From Candidatus Doudnabacteria bacterium RIFCSPHIGHO2_02_FULL_42_25 (GTDB lineage: Bacteria > Patescibacteriota > Doudnabacteria > UBA920 > O2-02-FULL-48-8), in contig MFEQ01000006.1 in the NCBI GenBank assembly GCA_001777665.1, positions 278,300 to 342,299 of the forward strand: a stretch of 64,000 bases of DNA, in the 5' to 3' direction. Position numbers and translations under genes: made by a program. Of the stretch, positions 2,165 through 54,364 are shown piece by piece. The notes under the pieces were generated by a model, which saw nothing but the letters and a program-made list of their open reading frames with translations, made no database searches and was not told the origin of the DNA. The first letter of the stretch is position 1, and the number at the start of each line of letters is the position of its first letter.

Positions 2165-2289
2165 CCCGCCTGCCACGCCTAATTAAATTTCTTGGTGGAC
2201 GATAGTGGATTCGAACCACTGACCTCGTCGATGTGAACGACGCACTCTAACCAGCTGAGCTAATCGTCCAAGATGGCATGGCGGGCAGG
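2165..2289 (-). repeat. palindromic-element arms CCTGCCCGCCATGCC / GGCGTGGCAGGCGGG flanking a complete tRNA-Val, inserted in the D-loop of the outer tRNA
   Basis: Read on the minus strand, the arms are the same 15-nt pair found in-frame in topA, uvrA and uvrC. Here the 'loop' between them is a whole tRNA gene. Confidence 0.7.
2194..2269 (-). tRNA. tRNA-Val (anticodon CAC)
   Basis: 76-nt cloverleaf GGACGAT-TA-GCTCAGCTGGTTAGAGT-G-CGTCG-TTCACAT-CGACG-AGGTC-AGTGG-TTCGAAT-CCACT-ATCGTCC-A. CCA follows in the genomic sequence. Confidence 0.85.
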
Positions 2290-2314: not shown

Positions 2315-2554
2315 TTAGATGCGTCCTTTTAAAAATCTTCGGCCAAAACCGGTTTTAAAATACTTTTCTCGTTTAATAGCATTCTCTTTGCTCAAACAGG
2401 CCTCGTAATATACTAATTCAAACGGGATTCTAGCCTTTGTTGCTTCGACTAAACCTTTATTATGCTTATCTACTCGTTCTTGCAAATCAACAGTCCAGCC
2501 TATATAAAGCTTTAAATCTTTAAGACTTTTTAGTACATAAGTATAGTAAAACAT
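2315..2554 (-). CDS. GIY-YIG nuclease family protein
   Basis: 79 aa. The 'YVLKS…LYIGWTVDLQERVDKHNKG' block is the GIY-YIG catalytic motif. The gene lies directly beside the IR-flanked tRNA insertion. Confidence 0.75.
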   Translation of the reverse strand: MFYYTYVLKSLKDLKLYIGWTVDLQERVDKHNKGLVEATKARIPFELVYYEACLSKENAIKREKYFKTGFGRRFLKGRI

Positions 2555-8309: not shown

Positions 8310-9396
8310 TCGTTTTACGTCAGCGCCACGCGTATCGGTTAACGTTAGACGATACGCGCAGCGCAGCCTTATAACGCTCACCGTGATTCTTCTCGTTCTT
8401 TTAATAGTTGTCTTTCTAAGTCCTAAAACTGCCCTAGGGCCAAAAACTGATAACCAAAAACCAAACCAACTTCCAAAACCTCCAACCACTACCCTGTTTT
8501 TTGCGGGTGACATCATGCTTTCGCGCAATGTCGCAGGCAAAATTTATACAGCCAACGACGTTCATCTCCCTTACTTAAACGTCAGTGAGAAAATTTTATC
8601 CGCTGATATTGCTTTTGCGAATCTAGAATCTCCGTTTAATAGCCAAGGAGATCATTCAGTCCAGAACAGTTTGATATTCAACGCTGATCCGAAATTCGCG
8701 GATGGACTATCAAATGCTGGTTTTGATATTTTATCTACAGCCAACAACCATTCGTTTGATCAGGGTAAATCCGCAATCGAATTTACGAGGGTCACCCTCG
8801 TAAATAATAATCTCGTGTCAGTTGGCACAGGAGTAGACTGTCACAGCGGAAAAATTATAGAAAAAAATCAGATCAAATTTGGATTTTTGGCTTACTCTTA
8901 TGCCGCACACAATGATGGTGGTAAAATTCCAGATCCTCTGGTTTGCGACTGGAATGATGAACAACAAATTGTTGCTGATATTCAGGCCATGCGGCCACAG
9001 GTCGATTTTTTGATCGTTTCCGCGCATATAGGCACTGAATACAAGCGAGTTCCAGACGAAGACAATGCATTGCGAGCGCGCAAAACCATAGATGCCGGAG
9101 CGGATTTATTTATCGGCCACCATCCACACTGGATCCAAACGATTGAGCAATATCAAGGTAAATGGATTTTCTATTCTTTGGGCAATTTTGTATTCGATCA
9201 AATGTGGAGCCAAGATACAAAAGAAGGTTTGACTATTACTGTCACACTTGAAGAAAAAGCGATCAAAAAAATCGAACTTAATCCGGTAGTTATCGAAAAT
9301 TATTGTTGTCCCATATGGGCTGATGACATGGAAAGTTTGGCCATCTTAAAGAAGATTGGCTTGACAACTAGAGTTTTATTAGGTGAAAATAAGTGA
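8293..9396 (+). CDS. CapA/PgsA-family metallophosphatase-like protein (poly-gamma-glutamate capsule synthesis family)
   Basis: FFAGDIM…FANLESP…ANNHSFD…SAHIGTEY…GHHPHWIQ…GNFVFDQ motifs are present. The exact start is uncertain because a palindrome lies at the 5' end. Confidence 0.75.
   Translation: MLKFVSRFTSAPRVSVNVRRYAQRSLITLTVILLVLLIVVFLSPKTALGPKTDNQKPNQLPKPPTTTLFFAGDIMLSRNVAGKIYTANDVHLPYLNVSEKILSADIAFANLESPFNSQGDHSVQNSLIFNADPKFADGLSNAGFDILSTANNHSFDQGKSAIEFTRVTLVNNNLVSVGTGVDCHSGKIIEKNQIKFGFLAYSYAAHNDGGKIPDPLVCDWNDEQQIVADIQAMRPQVDFLIVSAHIGTEYKRVPDEDNALRARKTIDAGADLFIGHHPHWIQTIEQYQGKWIFYSLGNFVFDQMWSQDTKEGLTITVTLEEKAIKKIELNPVVIENYCCPIWADDMESLAILKKIGLTTRVLLGENK
8321..8364. repeat. palindromic element, family 3, copy 1
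   Basis: CAGCGCCACGCGTATCG-GTTAACGTTAGA-CGATACGCGCAGCGCAG. A near-identical copy lies at 15165-15210. Confidence 0.7.
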
Positions 9397-13859: not shown

Positions 13860-15173
13860 TCAATCATTTTTCATGAAGATCCTGTTTTCGGTAGTCCAAT
13901 AAGAAATCGCTTTGGTGAATGGTAAAATAGATAGAAAATATCTCAAATCCGCGGCTTTGCGGATGAGCCAACCCGAAAATCCGGACATAATCACACTCGG
14001 TGTATAAAAAATAGCAAATTTTCCAGTCACAGGAATAATAAATCGTAACGCTACTGGATGATAACTAAGCAGCGGCTTGTCTTTGATCATGCGGTAAATA
14101 TTTTTGGCGACATATTTGCCTTGATTGATAGCTTCTTGTGCAGTTTGTGGCACTGGCTTTTTTGTAACTGGATCCACTATTCCGGTATTGTCCCCGGCGA
14201 GAAATACGCGTGGGTATTGCGATAAATTCAAAGCAGTCGCCACGATGGTCCGATCTTTTTTATCTCGTTCGAGTTCTCCGCCAGCTGGCAGATCTAGCGG
14301 CAACCGGATGGACCTGACTCCACCCGTCCAAATCAGCAAATCACAATCCACCCGTTCTTTCATATTTAGAATCACGTGATCCTTCCCAGTGTCAGTAATC
14401 AGTGATGAGAATCTAGTTTCAATTCCCATAGTAGTAAGTCGACTGCCGATTATTGCCGAAATTTTCTCCGACAGTCCGGATAAATAACTCGTCCCCCCTT
14501 CGACCATCACAACCTTGTAATTATTTAAATCTTTTTGATGGTGTGCACATTCATGCTTGAGCAGATTGTGTACTTCCCCGGCAAATTCAGTTCCAGCAAA
14601 ACCAGCACCACCGATAATAATGCAGCCACTGTCCTTTTTCGCAACTAAATCTTCGATACGATTCCGAATCATAATCGCATCTTCTAGACTTTTCAGTGTA
14701 AATCCGTACTTATCCAAATTCGGAATGTCATAATAATCGGGAACACTTCCCATAGCGATCACCAAATAATCAAAAGCTAAGATGCGCGAGTCAGTTATTA
14801 CTTTGCCGTTTATTAAATCAATCCGATCAACATAACCTTTGAAAACTTTTACTCTTGTTCGTTTAAAAATGTCATCGAAAGAAATCGCCACGGTATGCTT
14901 AACTTTTTTTGCTTCGACTAATCGGTGTTCTGTCGTGGCTGCTTCATAGAGAGCGGAATTAAAAGTTTGATAATCCTTTCGGTCAACTAAAATAATTTCG
15001 TATTCTAAATCATCGTGGAGGTAATTGTTCAAATCCAAAGCCGCTCGGACTCCGGCGAATCCGCCACCAAGAATGATAATATGTTTTTTCTCTTCTGGAA
15101 TTTTTGATTTCATGAATAAAAACAGCCCCTTTATTATACCATAAGCTGCGTTAATAGTTTTTCGGCAGCGCAA
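13860..15173 (-). CDS. type II NADH dehydrogenase-like FAD/NAD(P)-binding oxidoreductase
   Basis: Two GxGxxG dinucleotide folds are present (IIILGGGFAGV and IIIGGAGFAGTEFAGE). The C-terminal extension contains a near-copy of the PPAGG palindrome. Confidence 0.75.
   Translation of the reverse strand: MRCRKTINAAYGIIKGLFLFMKSKIPEEKKHIIILGGGFAGVRAALDLNNYLHDDLEYEIILVDRKDYQTFNSALYEAATTEHRLVEAKKVKHTVAISFDDIFKRTRVKVFKGYVDRIDLINGKVITDSRILAFDYLVIAMGSVPDYYDIPNLDKYGFTLKSLEDAIMIRNRIEDLVAKKDSGCIIIGGAGFAGTEFAGEVHNLLKHECAHHQKDLNNYKVVMVEGGTSYLSGLSEKISAIIGSRLTTMGIETRFSSLITDTGKDHVILNMKERVDCDLLIWTGGVRSIRLPLDLPAGGELERDKKDRTIVATALNLSQYPRVFLAGDNTGIVDPVTKKPVPQTAQEAINQGKYVAKNIYRMIKDKPLLSYHPVALRFIIPVTGKFAIFYTPSVIMSGFSGWLIRKAADLRYFLSILPFTKAISYWTTENRIFMKND
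14278..14290. repeat. near-palindrome CCGCCAGCTGGCA in-frame, encoding LPAGG
   Basis: 13/14 match to CCGCCAGCTGGCGG. Confidence 0.5.
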
Positions 15174-15210
15174 CGCGTATCGGTTAACGTTAGACGATAC
15201 GCGCGGCGCC
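15165..15210. repeat. palindromic element, family 3, copy 2 (intergenic)
   Basis: CAGCGCAACGCGTATCGGTTAACGTTAGACGATACGCGCGGCGC. Confidence 0.7.
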
Positions 15211-15221
15211 GACGAATAACT

Positions 15222-15938
15222 CTAGACGATGTCTTTTTTAGTTATGAATTTATGCTTGCCTAGGGGTAAATCACCCAACTTTACTTTTCCAACCCGGATT
15301 CGCTTGAGATTGCGAATCGTATAACCAAAAGCCGCAAACATTCTACGGACTTGGCGATTCCAGCCTTCGTGAATTGTGATATAGATAGTTGTACCGTTTG
15401 CTCGAACTTTGGCTGGTGCTGTTTTCTTGCCATCCAATTCCATGCCTTCCCGAAGTTTCGTGATCCGTCCTTCTGATAACTCTTTATTCAAAACCACCTC
15501 GTACTCTTTTTCGTGTTCTTTCGACGGATGTGCCAAGTCCTGAGTTAATTCTCCGTCATTAGTAAACAATAATAATCCTTCGGTATTGAAATCCAGGCGC
15601 CCGATGGGCCAGACCACTGATCGAAGATCTGCAGGTAATAAATCAAAAACAGTTTTGCGTTTTCGGGGATCATTCCGCGTAGTCAAATATCGCTTCGGTT
15701 TGTTCATCATGAGATAGATTAAACTTTTAACAGTTAACTTTTTACCATTAACCTCTACACGGTCTTTGGCAATGTCGGCTTTGGTTCCCAGCTCACGAAC
15801 TACTTGGCCATTCACTTTGACTTTGCCAGCCAAAATCAACTCCTCGGCATGACGCCTGGAAGCAATTCCTGCTTGGGAGATTATCTTTTGTAAACGCTCT
15901 TGCATGAGGTTTAATGCTATAATTAATTTATTAACCAT
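15222..15938 (-). CDS. pseudouridine synthase, RsuA/RluB family (S4 domain plus catalytic domain)
   Basis: An S4 domain at the N-terminus and the catalytic-Asp motif GRLDFNTEGLLLFTNDG are present. Confidence 0.85.
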   Translation of the reverse strand: MVNKLIIALNLMQERLQKIISQAGIASRRHAEELILAGKVKVNGQVVRELGTKADIAKDRVEVNGKKLTVKSLIYLMMNKPKRYLTTRNDPRKRKTVFDLLPADLRSVVWPIGRLDFNTEGLLLFTNDGELTQDLAHPSKEHEKEYEVVLNKELSEGRITKLREGMELDGKKTAPAKVRANGTTIYITIHEGWNRQVRRMFAAFGYTIRNLKRIRVGKVKLGDLPLGKHKFITKKDIV

Positions 15939-21468: not shown

Positions 21469-21934
21469 CTACGAAATTACGAAATTAATACGAAAATACG
21501 AACTAGTTAATATTAAGAATTCTTTTGTATTGTAATCCTTTTGCAGTAAAGTTTGCTAGTATTCCAAGTTTTAAATCTAAAGCCTTTAGATACGCTATAA
21601 CTTGTTCAATATTCTTATAAGAAAAATTATTATCTTTCTTGATTTCGAGTGCAACTTTATTCTCGACAAGAAAATCTAGGCGATAAGAGCCTATTGCCTT
21701 ATCTTTATACATCAGAGGGATTCTAGCCTGCTCAGTAAATGAAAGATTGCTCTTTTTCAACTCAATTGCAACAGCTCTTTGATAGTATTTCTCGTGATGT
21801 TTATTGCCTAGCTGCTTAAATACTTCAAACAAAACGCCGACTATTTGATAACTTAATTCTGGATAAACTAGATTTTTTTTACTACCACTGGTTTAGGCAT
21901 GTTCGTACTTTCGTAATTTTTTCGTAGTTCGTAG
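21469..21934. repeat. TACGAA×4 … TTCGTA×4 palindromic element whose loop contains the GxxExxY gene
   Basis: Left arm CTACGAAATTACGAAATTAATACGAAAATACGAA (21469-21502). Right arm TTCGTACTTTCGTAATTTTTTCGTAGTTCGTAG (21902-21934). Confidence 0.6.
21503..21832 (-). CDS. GxxExxY-family protein (PD-(D/E)xK nuclease-like)
   Basis: YQRAVAIEL…IGSYRLDFLVENKVALEIK matches the GxxExxY protein family signature. Confidence 0.65.
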   Translation of the reverse strand: MFEVFKQLGNKHHEKYYQRAVAIELKKSNLSFTEQARIPLMYKDKAIGSYRLDFLVENKVALEIKKDNNFSYKNIEQVIAYLKALDLKLGILANFTAKGLQYKRILNIN

Positions 21935-23159: not shown

Positions 23160-23222
23160 CTACGAAAGTACGAATTCTCGAATTACGAACTGTTCGTAGT
23201 TTCGCAATTTCGTATTTCGTAG
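23160..23222. repeat. TACGAA/TTCGTA palindromic element (downstream of dnaK)
   Basis: CTACGAAAGTACGAATTCTCGAATTACGAAC-TG-TTCGTAGTTTCGCAATTTCGTATTTCGTAG. Confidence 0.7.
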
Positions 23223-26621: not shown

Positions 26622-26648
26622 TTAGCACTTAAACGAATTGAGTGCTAA
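26622..26648 (-). promoter_or_regulatory. CIRCE operator 1 (TTAGCACTT-N9-GAGTGCTAA)
   Basis: Consensus HrcA operator overlapping the +1 region of the hrcA promoter. Confidence 0.9.
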
Positions 26649-26651
26649 GTC

Positions 26652-26680
26652 ATTATAAAATTAGCACTCAACCCTGTCAA
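26652..26680 (-). promoter_or_regulatory. sigma70 promoter of hrcA-grpE-dnaK
   Basis: On the minus strand: TTGACA, a 17-nt spacer, then TATAAT. The -35 box lies inside CIRCE 2. Confidence 0.75.
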
Positions 26681-26687
26681 GTGCTAA
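26661..26687 (-). promoter_or_regulatory. CIRCE operator 2 (TTAGCACTC-N9-AAGTGCTAA)
   Basis: Second inverted-repeat operator, overlapping the -35 box. Confidence 0.85.
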
Positions 26688-49281: not shown

Positions 49282-49352
49282 GGGTACGTGGCGGAATCCC
49301 GGTAGCAGACGCTTCGCGTCGCTACGGGGCAGGCTGGAATATTTATCCCGTA
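49282..49352 (+). other. tRNA-like fragment (acceptor-like GGGTACG … CCCGTAC)
   Basis: GC-rich and partially foldable. It shares its acceptor-stem sequence with the truncated tRNA-like element at 49487-49558. Confidence 0.3.
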
Positions 49353-49369
49353 CTAAATTTTGCAAGTAT

Positions 49370-49456
49370 GCTCGAGTGGTGGAACTGGCATACACGTACG
49401 CTTCAGGAGCGTATGACCGCAAGGTCGTGGGAGTTCAAATCTCCCCTCGAGCACCA
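49370..49456 (+). tRNA. tRNA-Leu (anticodon CAG), class II with long variable arm
   Basis: GCTCGAG…TACGC-TTCAGGA-GCGTA-(long variable arm)-GGAGTTCAAATCTCC-CCTCGAGC-A-CCA. Confidence 0.85.
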
Positions 49457-49486
49457 AAATCAATTTGATAACTCAGCAAAATTTTA

Positions 49487-49558
49487 GTACGGAGCGCGCA
49501 CGCTTCAGGAGCGTGTGGGAGCAATCCCGTGAGAGTTCAAATCTCTCCGTACCCGCCA
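49487..49558 (+). other. truncated tRNA-Leu-like partial duplicate
   Basis: It lacks a D-arm. The anticodon arm CACGC-TTCAGGA-GCGTG is a copy of the tRNA-Leu arm. A variable arm and a T-arm are present. Confidence 0.4.
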
Positions 49559-52582: not shown

Positions 52583-52644
52583 AATTGTTGATTAAAGCTG
52601 CAAAAAATGCTATAAATTATAGTTCGTCAACAAGGAGGAAGACG

Positions 52645-53931
52645 ATGCATTGGTCACAGAAAAACGAAGACTCACACTTCGAGTACACCCAGAGCCTTCG
52701 CGATCAAGCACTGGGTCGAATCCTATGGGGTAAAATTCTGCTAGTGGCAGCAGCAGTATTTGTCGCAGTTCCATTCACAGTGGAGCGCGGCACCTGGGCC
52801 GCCGGAGTACTGGCTTTGATCCAGTTCGGGTTCATCTCCATCGGCTGGCGGCTGATCTACTTCAACCGTGTGACATTGTTCGACCTTCGGGATCGGTTTT
52901 GTTCTCGTAAGCTTATTCCCGAATCCCGTAGGTTTCGCAGGCTCAATCCGAGGGTCCACATTTGGATCCCAAAGATGAAGATCTTCTGCAAAACCAACGA
53001 CCTTCGGGAACTGGAACAGCGGTTTCTCGATTATCTTCACCGGGAGTTCCGACTCTTTCAGCATGAAGATCAACTCCATAAATGGGTGCCTATCAATAAC
53101 CGACTTTGGGAAGATCTTGAAGTCGATCTCCGCACCCGCTTCTATCTCAAAGAGGAGACAATCGACGAAATCTTCGCGAAGTGGAAGACGAGTCCCCCTC
53201 AGCCAGCGCGACGGAAGCAGTTTGTCCAAAAACTTACTGCTGCCCTAGAACACAAACAGTTCACACTCCGCTTGCAACGGCCGAAAGTGAACTCTGACTC
53301 CGCTGGTGAGAAAGTTGCTCCTGCTGCACCTTTTGATCCTATAGTGTTCTATGAACTGGAAGCGTCAAACGCCGTGAAGCCTGAAGCAATTGCACTTTAC
53401 AAACGCGGACTAAATGAACCCGAACGAAGGAAAAAAATCCGGTTATTCAAACAGGCGACTTGGATTGAGCGCCAATCTGAAAAACAGGAACCAGTACCCC
53501 TACAGGCTGACGTTAACCAGTTTTCGGCAACACCTCGAGAAGTTGAAGTTTTGGACCTCAGTGGTCTGATCGAGGAGCAGCTGTCGAAATTCATTCGCCC
53601 AGGTATCGATCCACGGATGGCAGTGGAAATCCTCATGGTCCTGGCTTCTCCAAGGCGTCGATTCAGGATCTGGGGTGATGAAACGGTCTTGGTTCGTCGG
53701 ATTCGTCGACGTTATGAAATTACCACCGGAAAACCATTTGAGCTGAGTACTCTTCGCAACACACTCAACTGGTTATCTGGCATTGGCGTCGTGATTTCAG
53801 AACCGGCGAAGTCCAATACTGTCGTCTACCACATCCCACGAAACTCTTCGTCAGCCCGAACTGACGAAGCGAAAGAGCTGATTCGAACAGTGTCAAAACT
53901 GCGAGAACTTCTCATTTCTGGGAAATACTAA
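52645..53931 (+). CDS. hypothetical protein with N-terminal TM hairpin (GC-rich island)
   Basis: SD AAGGAGGAAG. The likely start is the Met at 52645 (MHWSQ…). No recognised domain. Confidence 0.5.
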   Translation: MHWSQKNEDSHFEYTQSLRDQALGRILWGKILLVAAAVFVAVPFTVERGTWAAGVLALIQFGFISIGWRLIYFNRVTLFDLRDRFCSRKLIPESRRFRRLNPRVHIWIPKMKIFCKTNDLRELEQRFLDYLHREFRLFQHEDQLHKWVPINNRLWEDLEVDLRTRFYLKEETIDEIFAKWKTSPPQPARRKQFVQKLTAALEHKQFTLRLQRPKVNSDSAGEKVAPAAPFDPIVFYELEASNAVKPEAIALYKRGLNEPERRKKIRLFKQATWIERQSEKQEPVPLQADVNQFSATPREVEVLDLSGLIEEQLSKFIRPGIDPRMAVEILMVLASPRRRFRIWGDETVLVRRIRRRYEITTGKPFELSTLRNTLNWLSGIGVVISEPAKSNTVVYHIPRNSSSARTDEAKELIRTVSKLRELLISGKY

Positions 53932-54088: not shown

Positions 54089-54092
54089 TTAT

Positions 54093-54121
54093 TGACAATT
54101 CGCGCGGCTGGGTGTATAATA
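54093..54121 (+). promoter_or_regulatory. sigma70 promoter for rnj
   Basis: TTGACA, a 17-nt spacer, then TATAAT. Confidence 0.7.
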
Positions 54122-54247: not shown

Positions 54248-54325
54248 CTACGAAGTACGAAAAGCTACGAAAATACGAAAAAGGTTAACCACTTCGTAAT
54301 TTCGTAAAAAATTCGTACTTCGTAG
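54248..54325. repeat. TACGAA×4 / TTCGTA×4 palindromic element in the rnj leader region
   Basis: CTACGAAGTACGAAAAGCTACGAAAATACGAAAAAGGTTAACCACTTCGTAATTTCGTAAAAAATTCGTACTTCGTAG. Confidence 0.75.
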
Positions 54326-54364
54326 ATAAAATTTACCATTAGCATTAACACAAGAATAAATTTT

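Follow-up and report, generated by a model that had tools for sequence, protein, structure and literature searches.

Several described systems join short repeated sequences to an enzyme that acts on DNA. In the case of repetitive extragenic palindromic (REP) sequences, their hairpin-forming doublets (REPINs), and the REP-associated tyrosine transposases (RAYTs), intergenic palindromes are said to go together with an enzyme gene that lies within inverted repeats, and each enzyme lineage reportedly has its cognate repeat. Other points of reference are the free-standing homing endonuclease genes, such as seg and mob of phage T4, and the homing endonuclease I-Ssp6803I, which is of the PD-(D/E)xK type. 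In the multirepeat transposon ends, namely, the TnsB sites of Tn7, the L1-L3 and R1-R3 sites of Mu, and the subterminal hexamers of maize Ac/Ds, the repeats are bound by the element's own protein. Here, we analyzed a stretch of 64,000 nucleotides (the window) from Candidatus Doudnabacteria bacterium RIFCSPHIGHO2_02_FULL_42_25 (contig MFEQ01000006.1, positions 278,300 to 342,299), in which a gene of the GxxExxY protein family is enclosed by arrays of the hexamers TACGAA and TTCGTA, and the same arrays form compact palindromes at three further sites. We consider it probable that these are selfish mobile palindromic elements, REPIN/RAYT-like or miniature inverted-repeat transposable element (MITE)-like, in which the nuclease recognizes its own arrays and of which the compact copies are gene-less derivatives. 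The element family is apparently undescribed: in the literature, we found no account of these repeats nor of a tie between such repeats and GxxExxY, PDDEXK_3, PF13366, or TIGR04256.

Hexamer arrays of the window and the gene between them

Using a four-hexamer architecture score with a threshold of at least 20/24, we found exactly eight TACGAA/TTCGTA arms in the window, corresponding to four elements (E1 to E4), and no arm at this score in five block-shuffled versions of it. The pattern TACGAAN{1,2}TACGAAN{3,6}TACGAA had 6 matches in the window versus none in 100 dinucleotide shuffles. The arms follow the layout C-TACGAA-N1-2-TACGAA-N4-5-TACGAA-N2-TACGAA, and the alignment of all eight resulted in the consensus CTACGAA-n-TACGAAA-n3-5-TACGAAA-n-TACGAAC. 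The four locations named in an earlier sequence-only reading of this DNA were all recovered (Table 1), and its description of four or five repeats per arm has to be corrected for E2, a degraded copy with three exact hexamers in either arm. Both E1 arms score 24/24, can be aligned with the compact copies, and fold, when joined by an artificial loop, with -36.6 kcal/mol (z = -9.7). This is on a par with the compact copies, which form long imperfect hairpins (z of -4 to -10.7), so that the E1 arms are closer to these copies than would be expected of shuffled AT-rich sequence. The loops of the compact copies, inspected by eye, contained no clear remnant of the ends of an open reading frame (ORF), and an Rfam search of the whole window at gathering thresholds returned three tRNAs and nothing else. 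On the minus strand, the gene order near E1 and E2 is hrcA, grpE, dnaK, E2, the DUF3467 gene, the gene of a 308-aa membrane protein, the GxxExxY gene with an E1 arm on either side, and dnaJ. E3 and E4 share a likeness of ~20 nt just past the right arm (A..TT....AT.AGCATTAA.A; window positions 54326-54364 and 62783-62817), ahead of the start codons of rnj and ssb, which could be an asymmetric extension of a subfamily or a common translation signal.

Table 1. Positions of the elements, the enclosed gene, and a promoter-like site in the window
Feature	Position	Strand	Description
E1 arm by dnaJ	21469..21502		+ strand C-TACGAA-AT-TACGAA-ATTAA-TACGAA-AA-TACGAA; 24/24; on the gene (minus) strand the 3' arm, beginning right after the GxxExxY stop codon
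GxxExxY gene (PF13366 / TIGR04256)	21503..21900	-	Fills the E1 loop exactly: TACGAAC-ATG ... TAG-TTCGTA; frameshifted
A8 run (T8 on + strand)	21873..21880	-	Place of the putative 1-nt deletion, A9 to A8
E1 arm by 308-aa membrane-protein gene	21902..21934		4 x TTCGTA on + strand; 24/24; 5' arm when read on the gene strand, with 1 nt between it and the ATG
E2, compact degraded palindrome	23160..23222		3+3 exact hexamers; occupies the whole dnaK-DUF3467 spacer
E3, compact 4+4 palindrome	54248..54325		rnj 5' leader; -39.5 kcal/mol, z -10.7; a perfect sigma-70 promoter lies ~130 nt before it and the rnj ATG 40 nt after it
E4, compact 4+4 palindrome	62705..62782		rpsF-ssb spacer; 2 nt past the rpsF stop, 36 nt ahead of the ssb ATG
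Promoter-like site TTGACA-17-TATAAT (12/12)	54092..54120	+	Context only: would make E3 part of the transcribed rnj leader

The assignment of the enclosed gene to the GxxExxY family, with a PD-(D/E)xK nuclease-like protein, was borne out by profile scores of 106.4 bits for PF13366 (cutoff, 22) and 106.5 bits for TIGR04256 (cutoff, 35), with profile positions 1 to 116 covered. The gene had been taken for a complete one of 109 aa, which is incorrect, since the listed ORF is an N-terminally shortened call that leaves out the first part of the domain. On the gene strand, the sequence is TACGAAC-ATG-CCT-AAA-CCA-GTG-GTA-GTA-A8-TCTAG. Because of the A8 run, the ancestral start codon, the ATG at 21900-21898, is shifted by one base relative to the frame of the nuclease domain, and the ORF is not intact. 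At the A8 run, intact relatives read KK[DN]; the N terminus of one of them, 80% identical, is MVNSKIVKKDLVYPEL, and given nine As the window protein would begin MPKPVVVKKNLVYPEL. The A8 version is identical across four independent metagenome assemblies and, therefore, no assembly error. It thus represents a real recent deletion of 1 nt or, possibly, a slippage-dependent frame. The stop codon, TAG, abuts the first TTCGTA of the other E1 arm.

In the family as a whole, invariant or almost invariant residues include Asp, Glu, and Lys in the PD-(D/E)xK motif and Glu in the GxxExxY motif. Its members carry the catalytic residues and the restriction endonuclease-like fold of PD-(D/E)xK enzymes; among the solved structures, none matched the GxxExxY protein by sequence. 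A profile search of 1.84 billion cluster representatives retrieved 17,281 members at an E value of 1e-3 or below; the family thus comprises at least 17,000 cluster representatives at 50% identity. A scan of viral contigs with the GxxExxY alignment returned no relative. In a survey of the superfamily from 2012, the function of PDDEXK_3 is given as "Unknown" (PMC3424549). About one-quarter of the best family representatives are proteins of ~265 aa with two tandem GxxExxY domains (e.g., P0146, P0150, and P0162), which may be single-chain dimers or result from read-through of adjacent elements, as in locus L134 described below.

Nuclease genes and matching arrays in other genomes

The loci from other genomes were fetched either via the hexamer pattern or via the protein, and the proportions given below are therefore biased and do not represent true frequencies. 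Gene calls in these loci are simple longest-ORF calls, and the taxon labels of several bins ("Gammaproteobacteria," "Bdellovibrionales," and some "Bacteroidetes") are those deposited and may be wrong.

The sequence-only reading had asked whether GxxExxY genes elsewhere are flanked by such arms, and this was found to be the case. A tblastn search with the window protein identified three loci (L067, L089, and L079) that hold a GxxExxY gene, 43 to 50% identical, exactly between TACGAA and TTCGTA arms. A metagenome scan with the GxxExxY alignment retrieved 324 relatives, the best 80 of which were examined, yielding 61 distinct usable loci. At least three ACGAA on the left together with at least three TTCGT on the right were present in 36 of the 61. 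On average, there were 2.9 ACGAA in the 100 nt on the left and 3.2 TTCGT in the 100 nt on the right; the respective values were 0.13 and 0.05 for the gene interior and 0.23 and 0.15 for units of opposite orientation. The stop codon lies at a median distance of ~4 nt from the first right-hand unit, and the ATG is usually found 0 to 10 nt past the last left-hand unit, at times within the arm. Both neighboring genes were on the same strand as the nuclease gene in 16 cases and both on the opposite strand in none. This co-orientation and the lack of room for a promoter imply that the gene would be expressed by read-through.

The sequence of the repeat unit differs among these loci. (i) Locus L079 contains a second, more distant GxxExxY gene with arms of 4 x ACGCTGA and 4 x TCAGCGT, and another gene of the family, in L006, lies between CACAGA and TCTGTG arrays. 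(ii) In L134, three GxxExxY genes within ~2.3 kb are accompanied by arrays of TACGGA, TACGAA, and TGCGGA, respectively. (iii) Further relatives have the units ACGAAT, GCGAAT, or TACTAA, and the variant is present in both arms. (iv) Three genes from other phyla show the same arrangement: the RefSeq-annotated ones of Bacteroides finegoldii (between radA and the gene of a flavin adenine dinucleotide [FAD] protein) and of Bernardetia (between ade and a guanylyltransferase gene) are each enclosed by 3 x CACAGAG and 3 x CTCTGTG, and that of Sphingomonas parapaucimobilis, located between fabD and fabG, by 3 x CGCGAA and 3 x TTCGCG. The Bacteroides fragment also contains gene-less copies with the same arms. 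The repeat unit thus covaries with the nuclease lineage and, because of this covariation, the nuclease is more than an optional cargo. The earlier suggestion of a mobile palindrome with an optional nuclease gene, therefore, stands as far as a mobile, nuclease-bearing element is concerned and has to be amended in the word "optional."

A scan with the four-hexamer pattern, using one genome per species, retrieved at least 119 stretches, nearly all of them from Patescibacteria (Nomura-, Moran-, Uhr-, Magasanik-, Doudna-, Falkow-, Sung-, Terry-, Taylor-, Nealson-, Staskawicz-, and Portnoybacteria and Saccharibacteria-labeled bins). The most common arrangement was four forward followed by four reverse hexamers (FFFFRRRR; 4+4). 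The spacing within the 266 arms is well defined, since the first gap is 1 nt in 198 arms, the second 4 to 5 nt in 212, and the third 2 nt in 241. In 172 arms, the outermost hexamer has a C in front of it, which results in the element ends CTAC...GTAG. When the paired arms of an element are compared, the 1-nt and 2-nt gaps prove complementary in 57 to 61% of the cases, versus ~20 to 32% in permuted pairs, and the 4- to 5-nt gap is barely complementary. Hence, both the hexamers and the hairpin potential are maintained. Three Bacteroidetes-labeled loci matching the pattern (L017, 5304-5522; L018, 7050-7364; and L094, 3369-3647) were set aside, as they are one-directional tandem arrays of 15 to 28 TACGAA units and not 4+4 palindromes.

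Copies within a genome can be related to each other: L025 and L045 each contain three copies with common spacers and loops, and in L007 and L042 one subfamily is present in both orientations. Shared spacers and loops point to copying and not to independently evolved binding sites. In all regions examined, gene-bearing copies are fewer than compact ones. The number of elements reaches six in 8 kb (L073), and four are present in the 64-kb window. These data also bear on the idea that the arms serve the nuclease gene alone, in autoregulation or RNA excision as for ORFs in rRNA intervening sequences, and that the compact palindromes are remnants left in place after loss of the ORF. The exact enclosure of the ORF by the arms, which would place it within a long-range stem in the transcript, is in agreement with this idea, but near-identical loops and spacers at different sites of L025 and L045 indicate that the compact form is itself copied, and the excess of compact copies also argues against it. 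We thus regard this explanation as quite improbable.

Insertion sites and evidence for movement

Of the strict compact elements with both neighbors nearby (n = 35), 29 are located between codirectional genes and 3 between convergent ones. They are typically placed ~6 nt after a stop codon and ~11 nt ahead of the next start (range before the start, 5 to 12 nt), a tight fit that is expected of insertion into the few-base spacers of compact genomes. Many copies are found inside ribosomal-protein operons. The genes downstream of 43 elements represent 58 Pfam families without a common theme and include those for the ribosomal proteins L17, L16, S3, L4, L6, and L22, GroEL, iPGM, aldolase, RuvB, FtsK, and RF-1. 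The spacers between hexamers are A-rich on the sense strand of the flanking genes, although this is a statistical trend only, from which the 3' arm of E1 itself deviates. No promoter-like or terminator-like consensus was detected inside the window elements.

The sequence-only reading had offered response-regulator boxes as an alternative, namely, that the arrays are transcription factor sites of a regulon that includes dnaJ, rnj, and ssb. In favor of this, the arrays do consist of directly repeated hexamers with a fixed spacing that are conserved in different lineages, and solo arms are found immediately ahead of dnaJ (L113) and ssb (L022). However, the downstream genes are functionally unrelated, many copies reside in ribosomal-protein operons, and the elements are wedged between the stop and start codons of codirectional genes, so close to the start and without an internal promoter-like site. 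Moreover, the spacing of 7/10-11/8 does not correspond to the helical repeat (10 to 11 bp) of OmpR/PhoB-type boxes, same-genome copies have spacers and loops in common, arms surround a nuclease gene in dozens of genomes, and orthologous sites in sister genomes are empty (see below). Regulation of this type is hence the least probable of the readings weighed here, and we give it hardly any weight. Scarcely more credible is a role as intrinsic (bidirectional) terminators or attenuators. Stable hairpins that follow stop codons would fit this function, but there is no T run past the stems, a terminator scan found none at the window elements, and the A-rich spacers of the sense strand are the opposite of a terminator tail. 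The stems consist of 6-bp units with two G-C pairs each instead of a G+C-rich stem with a T tail. In addition, the elements lie within ribosomal-protein operons and between tightly coupled genes, as illustrated by the six in 8 kb of L073, and the predominance of codirectional over convergent neighbors is not that of terminators.

Comparison of orthologous sites provides evidence for movement. At the E1 site, the window reads 'aaatttaaat[CTACGAA...466 bp...TTCGTAG]acacATGgc' and, in five sister Doudnabacteria (membrane protein 57 to 67% identical to that of the window) and in the syntenic L107, the membrane-protein gene and dnaJ are only 0 to 3 nt apart, e.g., 'gaaatttaATGgc'. Empty sites in sister genomes, which had been proposed as a check, were thus found in six relatives, and E1 would accordingly represent a lineage-specific insertion between these two genes. 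The clearest case is offered by two metagenome populations, L136 and L133, with flanks that are 91 to 97% identical. The T2SSE/T2SSF spacer of L136 holds an element ('cagaTAAccc[arm]tATG...TAAga[arm]gggatATGaaa'), and L133 reads 'cagaTAATGaag' there; the L133 element is found in the next spacer downstream and is 93% identical to that of L136 over 467 nt. That next spacer, after the T2SSF gene (2916-3460 in L136 and 3946-4520 in L133), contains a GIY-YIG gene in L136 and the GxxExxY element in L133. The GIY-YIG gene has inverted repeats of its own (AACCC[AC]GCCCTTTC / GAAAGGGTGGGGT) and an adjoining compact palindrome. Small nuclease genes of different folds, hence, seem to share a palindrome-enclosed lifestyle and hot spots.

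The occupants of the dnaK-DUF3467 junction vary: the window has a degraded TACGAA element, L107 a well-preserved one, and L207 none, and L208 and L209 contain unrelated G+C-rich hairpins. Sister L210 has yet another palindrome, with motifs resembling a second palindrome family of the window (GCGTAACG...CGTTACGC). That most Doudnabacteria carry some hairpin of unrelated sequence at this junction suggests that a hairpin is favored or tolerated there, and this is among the arguments for host RNA or DNA structures, i.e., intercistronic processing or mRNA-stabilizing hairpins, for example ones cut by RNase III, into whose loops GxxExxY genes home, with the arms serving as repair homology, as secondary parasites and not as the source of the enzymes by which the palindromes spread. 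The same explanation would account for the location of every window copy within a transcription unit, the high stability of the hairpins, the complementarity of the short gaps between arms, the A-rich sense-strand spacers, and the filling of the same types of junction in distant genomes. On the other hand, the E1 arms and gene entered together a site that is bare in six relatives, and L133 is bare where L136 has arms plus gene. Several units, each with its own nuclease lineage, can occur on one contig, which ties the arms to the gene and not to the host. The hexamers, finally, are conserved across Patescibacteria, with a 4- to 5-nt spacer that is not even complementary, and an RNase III substrate would not need such hexamers. 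Taken together, we judge this explanation unlikely, if still deserving consideration, and it and a mobile element are not mutually exclusive.

A mobile element has difficulties of its own. (i) No target site duplication or conserved target was detected: in 34 full elements, the palindrome extends into the flanks (tc...ga), which show no direct repeat, and the pairs of empty and filled sites show no clear duplication either. (ii) Distant genomes can have an element at the same site, as do the window and L022 between rpsF and ssb and the window and L107 between dnaK and the DUF3467 gene; this could reflect long persistence or a host function and not frequent movement. (iii) Outside Patescibacteria, not all GxxExxY genes have inverted arrays, since those of Fusobacteria and Prevotella are accompanied by direct repeats instead of inverted arrays, that of Treponema by only one 11-bp inverted repeat, and nothing clear was seen in the flanks of those of Gemmatirosa and Persicobacter.

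Two known types of array were considered and rejected. Integron cassettes do not apply, as the elements lie next to core genes that keep their synteny (such as dnaK-dnaJ, rpsF-ssb, and ribosomal-protein operons) and the window ORF list includes no integrase, no search having been aimed at attC core motifs. TIGR-Tas arrays do not apply either, as the spacers of only 1 to 5 nt could not accommodate guides and a Tas protein is absent.

The window contains further palindromes and unusual stretches. Just upstream of hrcA (26622-26687) are two adjoining CIRCE-type inverted repeats, TTAGCACTT-N9-GAGTGCTAA and TTAGCACTC-N9-AAGTGCTAA. Such an HrcA operator is expected for the hrcA-grpE-dnaK operon and has no relation to the TACGAA elements. 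The second palindrome family mentioned above has two copies (8311-8376 and 15149-15228) with the common core ACGCGTATCGGTTAAC and GTTAGACGATACGCG, located at tight junctions of codirectional genes. The gene for tRNA-Val (2193-2269, minus strand; region 2140-2330) has an inverted repeat, CCCCGCCTGCCACGCC / GGCATGGCGGGCAGG, on both sides and is followed by the gene of a 79-aa GIY-YIG nuclease (2315-2554, minus strand; PF01541), and that for tRNA-Leu (49370-49456; region 49300-49520) is flanked by CCGTACTAAATTTTGC / GCAAAATTTTAGTACGG. These are probably the repeats that the sequence-only reading had described as a tRNA carried between the arms of another palindrome family, and they could be processing stems or another type of element. 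At 59222-59324, the spacer that follows a 265-aa HAD-like gene contains a lone 27-nt inverted repeat, ATCCCGTTAGAAATAGTGATTAGTTAA / TTAACTACGGCAAATTTCTAACGGGAT, which has a loop of 49 nt and matches no other palindrome of the window. Between ~49.8 and 53.9 kb, immediately ahead of the rnj promoter, numerous long ORFs overlap in several frames, suggesting a higher G+C content than in the rest of the window. This region encodes proteins without a Pfam match (e.g., 52585-53931) and may be a foreign island.

Proposed mechanism and comparison with known systems

That we nevertheless favor a selfish mobile element is based directly on its architecture and distribution, the association of gene and arms, the covariation of unit and protein, the empty and filled sites, and the nuclease fold and intact catalytic motif of the family. 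From these sequence data, we infer that the nuclease may be active, may bind and cut the arrays, and may mobilize the element. The full-length form, of ~460 bp, consists of a left arm with four hexamers at fixed spacing, a promoterless GxxExxY ORF that starts 0 to 10 nt after one arm and stops 0 to 5 nt before the other, and an inverted right arm, and the palindromes of 65 to 90 nt would be gene-less derivatives that are themselves copied like MITEs or REPINs. The nuclease, probably a dimer or higher oligomer, would bind the hexamer arrays of its own arms and cut at or near them, or cut the hairpin or cruciform formed by the arms, and this cutting would drive transposition or recombination-dependent copying. 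Elements would survive where they are least harmful, in the very short spacers of codirectional genes, where the ORF would be expressed by read-through and the arms would fold into a hairpin in the transcript. In the window, the nuclease gene of E1 would have lost one A after insertion, and E2 to E4 would be older gene-less copies.

A more general proposal, for and against which we see the case as about evenly balanced, is that GxxExxY proteins are the mobilizing or homing nucleases of an unrecognized class of palindromic elements in Patescibacteria, Bacteroidota, and Proteobacteria, whose ends are arrays of 3 or 4 short direct repeats that the nuclease recognizes in a sequence-specific manner and which are the source of the abundant gene-less intergenic palindromes in the ultrasmall genomes of Patescibacteria. 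A very large protein family of "function unknown" would in this way obtain a concrete, testable role, and the conspicuous intergenic palindromes of streamlined Patescibacteria genomes an explanation. If true, the system would be a PD-(D/E)xK-based counterpart to the HUH-based REP/RAYT system. Its cognate pairs of a short unit and a nuclease of ~130 aa suggest a compact and evolvable module for DNA recognition, and since cultured Bacteroides and Sphingomonas share the architecture, experiments are possible without uncultured organisms. Examples of such proteins are WP_032839887.1 of Bacteroides finegoldii and WP_347090946.1 of Sphingomonas, and P0002 is an intact relative from Patescibacteria. 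In genome annotation, labels such as terminator or operator should be avoided for these hairpins, and the arms should be taken into account whenever a short frameshifted GxxExxY ORF is interpreted.

Compared with the REPIN-RAYT system, the elements are likewise short imperfect palindromes present in multiple copies in intergenic spacers, with an associated enzyme gene in inverted repeats, cognate pairs of repeat and enzyme, and possibly long persistence at given sites. The element ends, CTAC...GTAG, recall the GTAG tetranucleotide of REP sequences, which may be a coincidence. They differ in that the only ORF encodes a PD-(D/E)xK nuclease of ~130 aa, whereas RAYTs are HUH/Y1 (IS200/IS605 TnpA-like) transposases, and in that an arm consists of four short direct repeats at fixed spacing, whereas a REP is a single stem. 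Furthermore, several gene-bearing copies per genome are possible, and the host range centers on Patescibacteria, although there are relatives in Bacteroidota and Alphaproteobacteria. With MITEs, Correia/CREE, ERIC, RPE, and BOX elements, the compact copies share the small size, lack of genes, multiple copies, inverted repeats, cotranscription with flanking genes, and apparent derivation from a longer gene-bearing form. Unlike in MITEs, no target site duplication was detected and there is no DDE transposase partner; a longer gene-bearing form does exist, but its protein is a nuclease and not a recognized transposase, and the hexamer arrays are distinctive.

Free-standing homing endonuclease genes resemble the gene-bearing form as small promoterless nuclease ORFs that lie co-oriented between conserved genes and are present in some close relatives and absent from others, but they are not known to have enclosing inverted repeat arrays or gene-less palindromic progeny. 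The ends of Tn7, Mu, and Ac/Ds similarly consist of several short direct repeats, inverted between the ends, although such elements span kilobases and rely on DDE or hAT transposases, whereas here an entire arm has ~31 nt and a minimal nuclease domain is the only protein. Integron attC sites are also imperfect palindromes between co-oriented, tightly packed ORFs; here, however, the neighbors are core housekeeping genes in conserved order and not cassettes, and the arms are hexamer arrays. The element thus differs in a defining feature from the REP/REPIN-RAYT system, from MITEs, and from free-standing homing endonuclease genes, while it is similar to the first two in its logic and to the last in its genomic behavior.

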